From positions 620,001 to 684,000 of the forward strand of contig NW_026515635.1 in NCBI RefSeq assembly GCF_000738915.1: a stretch of DNA of 64,000 nucleotides, read 5' to 3'. Position numbers and translations under genes: made by a program. The DNA is from Nematocida ausubeli (Eukaryota). The notes below the pieces were generated by a model. That model worked only from the letters and a program-made list of their open reading frames with translations. It made no database searches and was not told the DNA's origin. This document shows positions 56,585-57,212 of the stretch, one piece after another; the stretch's first letter is position 1; each line of letters begins with the position of its first letter.

Positions 56585-57212
56585 GCTAAAAAGCCATTCG
56601 AGGCTTGCGGACAAGGAATATTAGTTGAGCACACAAAGGGCGGACACAGTACAGCAAGACAGCAGGCAGATCGGGAGCGGCTGTTTATTAATAATAGTGT
56701 GTACCGGCCATGTACGGGCGCCATGTACTGCCTGCACACAGCACATCTTCGCTCGCTGCATACACATGTAGTGGTTAGCTGCTGCATATGCAGGGAGAGC
56801 GGCGTCTTGCGACTGGCCTGAGAACCCAGCGGCCCGCGCATGCTGCTGTTTGCCGGAGCGCTGCAGACAGCACGGCAGGCCATCGCGCGCGCTGCGCAGA
56901 GGAGAGGGCCAGTCGGTGCTGAGGACAGGAGCAGGGAAGTCCAGTGCACGCATAGTTCAGTGCCACTTCGGCTTAGACAACGCAGCGGCTCTAAATATTA
57001 AATGTACAAGCATCAAGGTAAAAAGAACATGCGCGGAATTTCCTAATGACAAAGTTGGCATCCAAGCTACTCCATATGGCCTTATAGGCTACCCCGAAGG
57101 GAATGATAATAGTGGACGACCCACCGGCAGGGTTAGTGCCGGCTTGCTCCTGCCACCTCCTAGCCAGCCCTCTCCTGCTGCACTGCGCCGTGAGACAGAT
57201 GCAGCTCTCCTG
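56585..57212 (-). ncRNA. candidate ~630-nt structured ncRNA (possible telomerase RNA)
   Basis: GC-rich island with nested long-range helices: 57204-57210/56794-56800, 57164-57176/56900-56912, 57145-57154/56924-56933 and 56876-56885/56810-56820; G-U pairs work only on the - strand; UUCG hairpin; CUAACCCU at 57136-57129. Confidence 0.6.

Follow-up and report, generated by a model that had tools for sequence, protein, structure and literature searches.

In the window, a 64,000-nucleotide stretch of Nematocida ausubeli DNA, positions 56790-57215 are probably a gene for a structured, non-coding RNA. Read from the minus strand, this RNA is most likely a divergent telomerase RNA that would template TTAGGG through the 8-mer CUAACCCU, an assignment that is proposed tentatively. 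Telomerase RNA is the single best label for the unit, itself held with reserve, and the unit is not filed as a member of that family because some defining features were looked for and not found. These features were taken from passages of PMC3592445 and PMC8480181. A sequence-only reading of the same DNA had described a telomerase-RNA-like architecture, with the 8-mer inside an enclosing helix and a CR4/5-like junction behind it. Of this, a likely structured RNA and a rare 8-mer stand. Three features of telomerase RNAs, an accessible template, a triple-helix pseudoknot and a canonical P6.1, are missing from the predicted structure. A genome has one telomerase RNA and possibly many islands of this kind, which makes the prior low; the rare 8-mer raises it, and the three missing features lower it again.

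The locus and its predicted fold

Of five window proteins compared with the protein collection, three were present there, in clusters with named members from Nematocida ausubeli (two proteins) or Nematocida species, and two were absent. The spacer that contains the candidate is 2.45 kb long; it is bordered by an 899-aa gene with no Pfam match (53442-56141, plus strand) and by a MYST acetyltransferase (MYST/Esa1) gene (58594-59706, plus strand). The putative RNA of about 425 nt (56790-57215, minus strand) was recognized as a GC island with the lowest minimum free energy, whose open reading frames (ORFs) lack homologs. Its ends were placed by the closing helix rather than by mapping, and the 5' start could fall anywhere from about 57237 to 57211. 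Just upstream, a TATA-like box followed by GGG forms a candidate promoter (57238-57247, minus strand), and TATA plus CCC can be read on the plus strand too. Encephalitozoon ncRNA genes have been reported to carry TATA and CCC/GGG upstream, and TATA with a modified CCC has been reported for N. parisii. In the wider interval 57238-57253, CCC/GGG stands on both sides of the TATA-like element, and bidirectional transcription could result. At the other end of the unit, AATAAA (56684-56689, minus strand), a possible 3'-end signal, follows two hairpins (56793-56756 and 56746-56723).

A protein-coding reading of 56790-57215 was rejected, as its short ORFs have no Pfam match and none of the four local ORFs tried is present in the protein collection. 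Moreover, three short ORFs over the region gave no homolog at E <= 10, and one ORF gave no match among 1.84 billion representatives. ARAGORN found no tRNA in the 64-kb window. Rfam gave no match at the gathering score and only low-complexity matches under relaxed settings (E up to 10 for the region and up to 1 for the window). A 20-nt pattern had three metagenome matches, all within bacterial coding sequence and with dissimilar flanks, and a 26-nt pattern had none in GTDB. No relatives of the neighbouring MYST gene were found in viral contigs.

Among non-coding stretches of 400 nt (208 windows, about 18 kb), the island has the highest GC content, at 0.58 compared with 0.50 for the next, and none of the other folds among 638 is lower in energy. 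Its long-range helix has the top score of 636 windows, a score matched by 2/500 dinucleotide shuffles for the minus strand and 1/500 for the plus strand. Fold stability against direct shuffles gave z values of -3.1 to -3.2. Under a composition-regression null the island falls to z -1.7 (rank 55/638) and five other windows reach z <= -3; its overall fold stability is not unique in the window. One of these five, 44150-44650, has an unusually stable fold for its composition (z -3.3 by direct shuffles) and no Rfam match.

The preference between strands is slight, with z -3.1 for the minus strand and -2.8 for the plus strand. When helices are taken from the minus fold, a choice biased towards that strand, G-U pairs outnumber A-C mismatches 17:1; an unbiased count gives 6:3, which is not significant. 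The cUUCGg loop at 57099-57094 was discounted as an indication of strand because its closing pair has a probability of 0.2. By these folding measures the minus strand appears favoured only mildly.

The motif positions given in the sequence-only reading were all found again on the minus strand. An outer helix that the reading had not mentioned (5' arm 57212-57195, 3' arm 56810-56791) pairs the two ends and is predicted to close the whole unit. Its 7-bp core has a pairing probability of 0.83-0.91, which drops to 0.04 when 57222-56690 is folded. Within it, a long P1-like enclosing helix, seen in the fold and in the shuffle test, has its 5' arm at 57188-57145. The 3' arms of this helix and of an inner stem lie together at 56943-56889. 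The inner stem (57122-57113 with 56943-56934; p 0.95-0.99) closes a 170-nt domain that is weakly folded (z -0.46) and more AU-rich. Here a 4-bp stem carries a 15-nt U-rich loop (57032-57010, minus strand) at the place expected for a pseudoknot. The 3' domain (56885-56810, minus strand) has stem arms at 56885-56876 and 56820-56810 and long-arm strands at 56873 and 56845; in the favoured fold, a long and a short hairpin stand side by side in the junction.

The candidate template and telomerase RNA features

The candidate template CUAACCCU (57136-57129, minus strand) amounts to 1.33 copies of the TTAGGG C-strand and is the sole copy of this word in the window, with flanks at 57143-57137 and 57129-57123. 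The 5' strand of the long helix reaches 57145 and, as had been noted from the sequence, 8 nt separate it from the 8-mer. The template of mouse telomerase RNA consists of the same eight letters, and the linker between P1 and template in human telomerase RNA is likewise 8 nt long. In 20,000 shuffles, CUAACCCU itself arose in 0.4%, and a TTAGGG 8-mer or a TTAGG 7-mer in 4.6%. Template-like words also occur elsewhere in the window: an AT-rich spacer has a TTAGGG 8-mer at 10079, and an AN1 zinc-finger gene contains a TTAGG 10-mer at 43609. Because of these copies, such words can be said to arise here by chance. The 8-mer exceeds chance moderately: a TTAGGG 8-mer in any permutation appeared in 1.2% of the 20,000 shuffles.

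The warning that the flanks can trap CUAACCC is borne out in the predicted folds. A 7-bp stem with a 7-nt loop containing CUAACCC (57143-57123, minus strand) is predicted with p 0.97-0.999 and has -11.2 kcal/mol alone. The RNA has only three unpaired runs of at least 7 nt, and seven of the eight template letters make up one of them. Opening this stem would take 12.6 kcal/mol in full, or 8.3 kcal/mol for 2 nt on each side. In the predicted folds, the template does not lie in an extended single-stranded region. The 5' flank of the template has an alternative partner at 57168-57162 (-10.5 kcal/mol) and the 3' flank at 56856-56851 or 56884-56873. As for a template boundary, the enclosing helix ends 8 nt upstream and the linker is paired. 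An upstream boundary-type (P1.1-like) hairpin had to be forced, at +19 kcal/mol in nested folding; a crossing pair could repay part of this cost, and the switch to such a fold is speculation.

The repeat that such a template should match varies among relatives. TTAGGG has been reported in Mitosporidium daphniae (one contig), Hamiltosporidium, Binucleata and G. vavrai, TTAGG in Encephalitozoon, Ordospora and Vairimorpha, and TTAG in Glugoides and Microsporidia sp. MB. In published accounts, TTAGGG is treated as ancestral to TTAGG and TTAG in microsporidia. The objection that Encephalitozoon telomeres are TTAGG is correct for that genus, but it is weakened by the TTAGGG of several microsporidia and of Mitosporidium. 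The literature searched, which covered few subscription papers, gave no telomere repeat for Nematocida, and none was seen in the searchable supplement text of PMC7857110, PMC10767889 and PMC13174016. TERT has been reported in Encephalitozoon and in Microsporidia sp. MB.

The pseudoknot was sought as an H-type fold whose first loop is U-rich and whose second stem contains AA. The best score was matched by 26/60 shuffles, so no telomerase-type pseudoknot stands above chance; the earlier attempt to build one with a triple helix had come to the same end. For the U-rich loop at 57032-57010, no convincing downstream pairing partner was found. A possible non-canonical 9-bp crossing helix (57097-57089 with 57021-57013) has a predicted -9.1 kcal/mol. 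A 12-bp crossing helix (57037-57026 with 56844-56833) competes with a hairpin of p 1.0. Trypanosome telomerase RNA is of the box C/D type and has no canonical pseudoknot. It is thus a precedent for an RNA lacking the triple-helix pseudoknot, although the Nematocida unit has no C/D boxes.

The three-way junction proposed behind the template domain was recovered as sequence elements and not as the preferred structure. As drawn, it is less stable than the minimum by 1.0-2.4 kcal/mol when the 80-nt domain is folded alone and by 4.8 kcal/mol in the whole RNA, with pair probabilities of 0.08 and 0.002. Its tiny hairpin, suggested as P6.1 (56835-56822, minus strand), is in place; with 5 bp (two of them G-U) and a 4-nt GCUG loop, it differs from the canonical 4 bp and NUNGN loop and shares the low probability of 0.002-0.08. 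A CR4/5 with such a canonical P6.1 was not found in the candidate RNA; a simpler eCR4/5-type stem is possible. The sole 4-bp hairpin with a NUNGN loop in 56670-57240 (57124-57112) lies beside the template and costs 7.9 kcal/mol. It was rejected as P6.1: 186 such hairpins occur in the window, a chance level, and it is 170 nt from a P5 strand. Motif searches of the unit recovered neither an H/ACA end nor an Sm site nor paired C and D boxes; no H box follows the junction, and the best box C on the minus strand has two mismatches.

Vertebrate and basal-metazoan telomerase RNAs share with the unit a template downstream of an enclosing P1 and a 3' junction domain, and the acorn worm RNA (436 nt) is of similar size (PMC8480181). 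In contrast to these RNAs, as described in the same source, the Nematocida template is predicted to sit in a hairpin loop instead of a single strand, and the unit lacks the U-rich triple-helix pseudoknot, the P6.1 of 4 bp with NUNGN, and the H/ACA domain. Filamentous-fungal and fission-yeast RNAs share the core-enclosing helices and the three-way junction, and for S. pombe and S. complicata an L6.1 loop of 4 to 5 nt is allowed (PMC3592445). Unlike the fungal RNAs described there, the favoured Nematocida fold has no upstream boundary hairpin, PK1/PK2 or Sm site. Spliceosomal RNAs (U2, U6) have been reported missing in Nematocida, and spliceosomal 3'-end processing is unlikely because the spliceosome is missing there. 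Further background came from passages of PMC11592040, PMC12449221, PMC10542269, PMC10158259, PMC3514677, PMC12133305 and bioRxiv 10.64898/2026.01.30.702766.

If the unit is a telomerase RNA, transcription would start from the TATA-like box at 57247 and would be by Pol II. A run of five U stops Pol III. Pol II is preferred over Pol III because a five-U run inside the RNA would terminate the latter. The closing helix would place the template domain next to the 3' junction, the template boundary would be set by the enclosing helix 8 nt upstream, and TERT would bind the 3' junction as the equivalent of CR4/5. An extra, speculative step is needed in which the 7-bp template stem is opened within the particle, either by TERT or by re-pairing of its flanks.

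Competing explanations

The strongest competitor, possible if rather doubtful, is a structured ncRNA of another kind, most plausibly a diverged U3- or snR30-like guide or scaffold for rRNA processing in which the 8-mer is accidental and three single-stranded stretches are displayed for pairing. The GC island and the long helix serve this reading equally well. The locked template, the missing pseudoknot and the non-canonical P6.1 need no excuse under it. By eye, degenerate U3-like words also occur in the right order in the inner domain (57120-57102, 57064, 57016 and CUGA at 56960). Judged against the U3 alignment of Encephalitozoon and Nosema, these words mainly show how easily matches are made by eye. 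They begin about 100 nt inside the unit, the best box C has two mismatches, and no tandem GA for a B/C motif could be seen by eye. U3 and box C/D snoRNAs as such were rejected by motif and order, given the two mismatches in box C and words that are only degenerate. Known microsporidian ncRNAs have been reported at 60-250 nt, which counts against this reading. Rfam shows no relevant match at E <= 10, and the 8-mer would have to be a 1-5% coincidence.

It is also conceivable, but unlikely, that the island makes no functional RNA and is either regulatory DNA rich in GC or the decayed remnant of a fold-back or mobile element, in a long spacer behind a Nematocida-specific gene. Such an origin would suit a spacer in which a neighbouring 320-bp non-coding element is duplicated within the window. 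Both strands of the island fold well, and the wobble count without strand bias falls short of significance. The TATA element has almost the same form on both strands, and other windows fold equally well for their composition. The island itself, however, has no second copy in the window, and its nested, branched helices with wobble pairs fit an RNA better than terminal inverted repeats. Moreover, the mean intergenic distance in N. parisii has been reported as 418 bp, and a 58% GC island kept in so compact a setting suggests constraint.

An RNase P, RNase MRP or SRP RNA diverged beyond the reach of Rfam is very improbable: P4-like words exist (57043-57032 on the minus strand, 56935-56946 and 56968-56975 on the plus strand), but the P4 strands (CR-I, CR-V) of Encephalitozoon and Nosema RNase P and MRP are reported to be nearly unchanged, and here they are mismatched (best 4/12 and 3/11 for RNase P CR-I and CR-V, 2-3/10 and 2/8 for RNase MRP) and in an unworkable order that leaves no space for P2, P19 and CR-V, while the helix-8 pattern of SRP RNA has only one-mismatch matches outside any fitting hairpin and Rfam gives no match.

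The Encephalitozoon orphan RNA and other features of the window

A stronger microsporidian telomerase RNA candidate than the Nematocida locus is an orphan RNA of Encephalitozoon. This RNA, from E. cuniculi chromosome I (AL391737, c129509..129700), is 192 nt long, RACE-validated, and carries boxes C and D without an rRNA target (PMC5499648). By eye, CUAACCU is present in all four Encephalitozoon species in Supplementary Figure S2 of that paper, and the word equals 1.4 copies of the C-strand of the Encephalitozoon TTAGG repeat. In the same figure, a 5-bp hairpin with a variable loop and a constant stem stands immediately 5' of the template. The closing helix holds a 4-bp hairpin in which G-U changes to A-U between species. 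Beside this hairpin, a 4-bp stem with a YUUGC loop fits NUNGN in 4/4 species; one letter of the NUNGN-type stem is printed differently for E. cuniculi in Figure S3 (PMC5499648). From these features, compared by eye, the orphan 'C/D snoRNA' is likely to be a telomerase RNA of the box C/D type.

This reading is not the description given by the authors of the RNA in the parts of PMC5499648 drawn on here, where 'telomer' does not occur in the main text and no Nosema ortholog was identified (PMC5499648). In published lists, telomerase RNA is absent from the 18 annotated Encephalitozoon ncRNAs. No microsporidian telomerase RNA was found in the literature searched, which included few subscription papers.

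The orphan RNA shares with the Nematocida unit, by eye, an outer stem, a template-enclosing helix and a junction directly behind it. Both have the same template permutation, some short words are alike and follow each other in one order, and neither has an obvious canonical pseudoknot. Only the orphan RNA, at about 190 nt, has C/D boxes, a free template, a 5' boundary hairpin and a canonical P6.1, all of which are missing from the Nematocida unit. By eye, U3 gave comparable matches, so matches of this sort are weak.

Taken together, the two RNAs may be two unreported microsporidian telomerase RNA builds, one of 425 nt in Nematocida and one of 190 nt in Encephalitozoon, a pairing that must be regarded as doubtful. 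On the Nematocida side, the TTAGGG template would be stored in a hairpin loop and exposed by a switch, in an RNA that lacks both a canonical pseudoknot and a canonical P6.1. On the Encephalitozoon side of this combined reading, the telomerase RNA would be a box C/D-capped RNA with a TTAGG template that has carried an orphan snoRNA label since 2017. Microsporidia have shortened their repeat from TTAGGG to TTAGG and TTAG, and the templates should track this change, which gives a direct test. Their telomerase RNAs would also show what degree of reduction this RNA tolerates where eukaryotic genomes are smallest. With two concrete candidates, the question can be addressed in existing assemblies.

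Several further features were observed in the window. The 320-bp non-coding element occurs at 57587-57896 (plus strand) and 25511-25205 (minus strand), with 62% identity (E 4e-13). Both copies lie near a GC-raised spacer, are G+T-rich on one strand and end in a T run. A second duplicated non-coding stretch is found at 9849-10221 and 24611-24983 (plus strand; 68% over 383 bp). Downstream of its first copy is a 930-aa gene, a relative of the 899-aa gene; no gene of this kind stands beside the second copy, which may mark a lost one.

Another small RNA gene possibly lies at 26990-26830 (minus strand), where a TATA box and GGGGG are followed by some 140 nt rich in GC and then by AATAAA; its plus strand folds better (z -2.4), and Rfam matches are only weak. 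Nearby, at about 26022-25930 (minus strand), lie some five degenerate units of 19-20 nt that Tandem Repeats Finder did not list. An 11-mer in one of these units also occurs around the U-rich loop of the candidate RNA, probably by chance. Finally, a long reading frame at 60753-64000 (plus strand) runs past the window end and resembles, by eye, the largest RNA polymerase II subunit.
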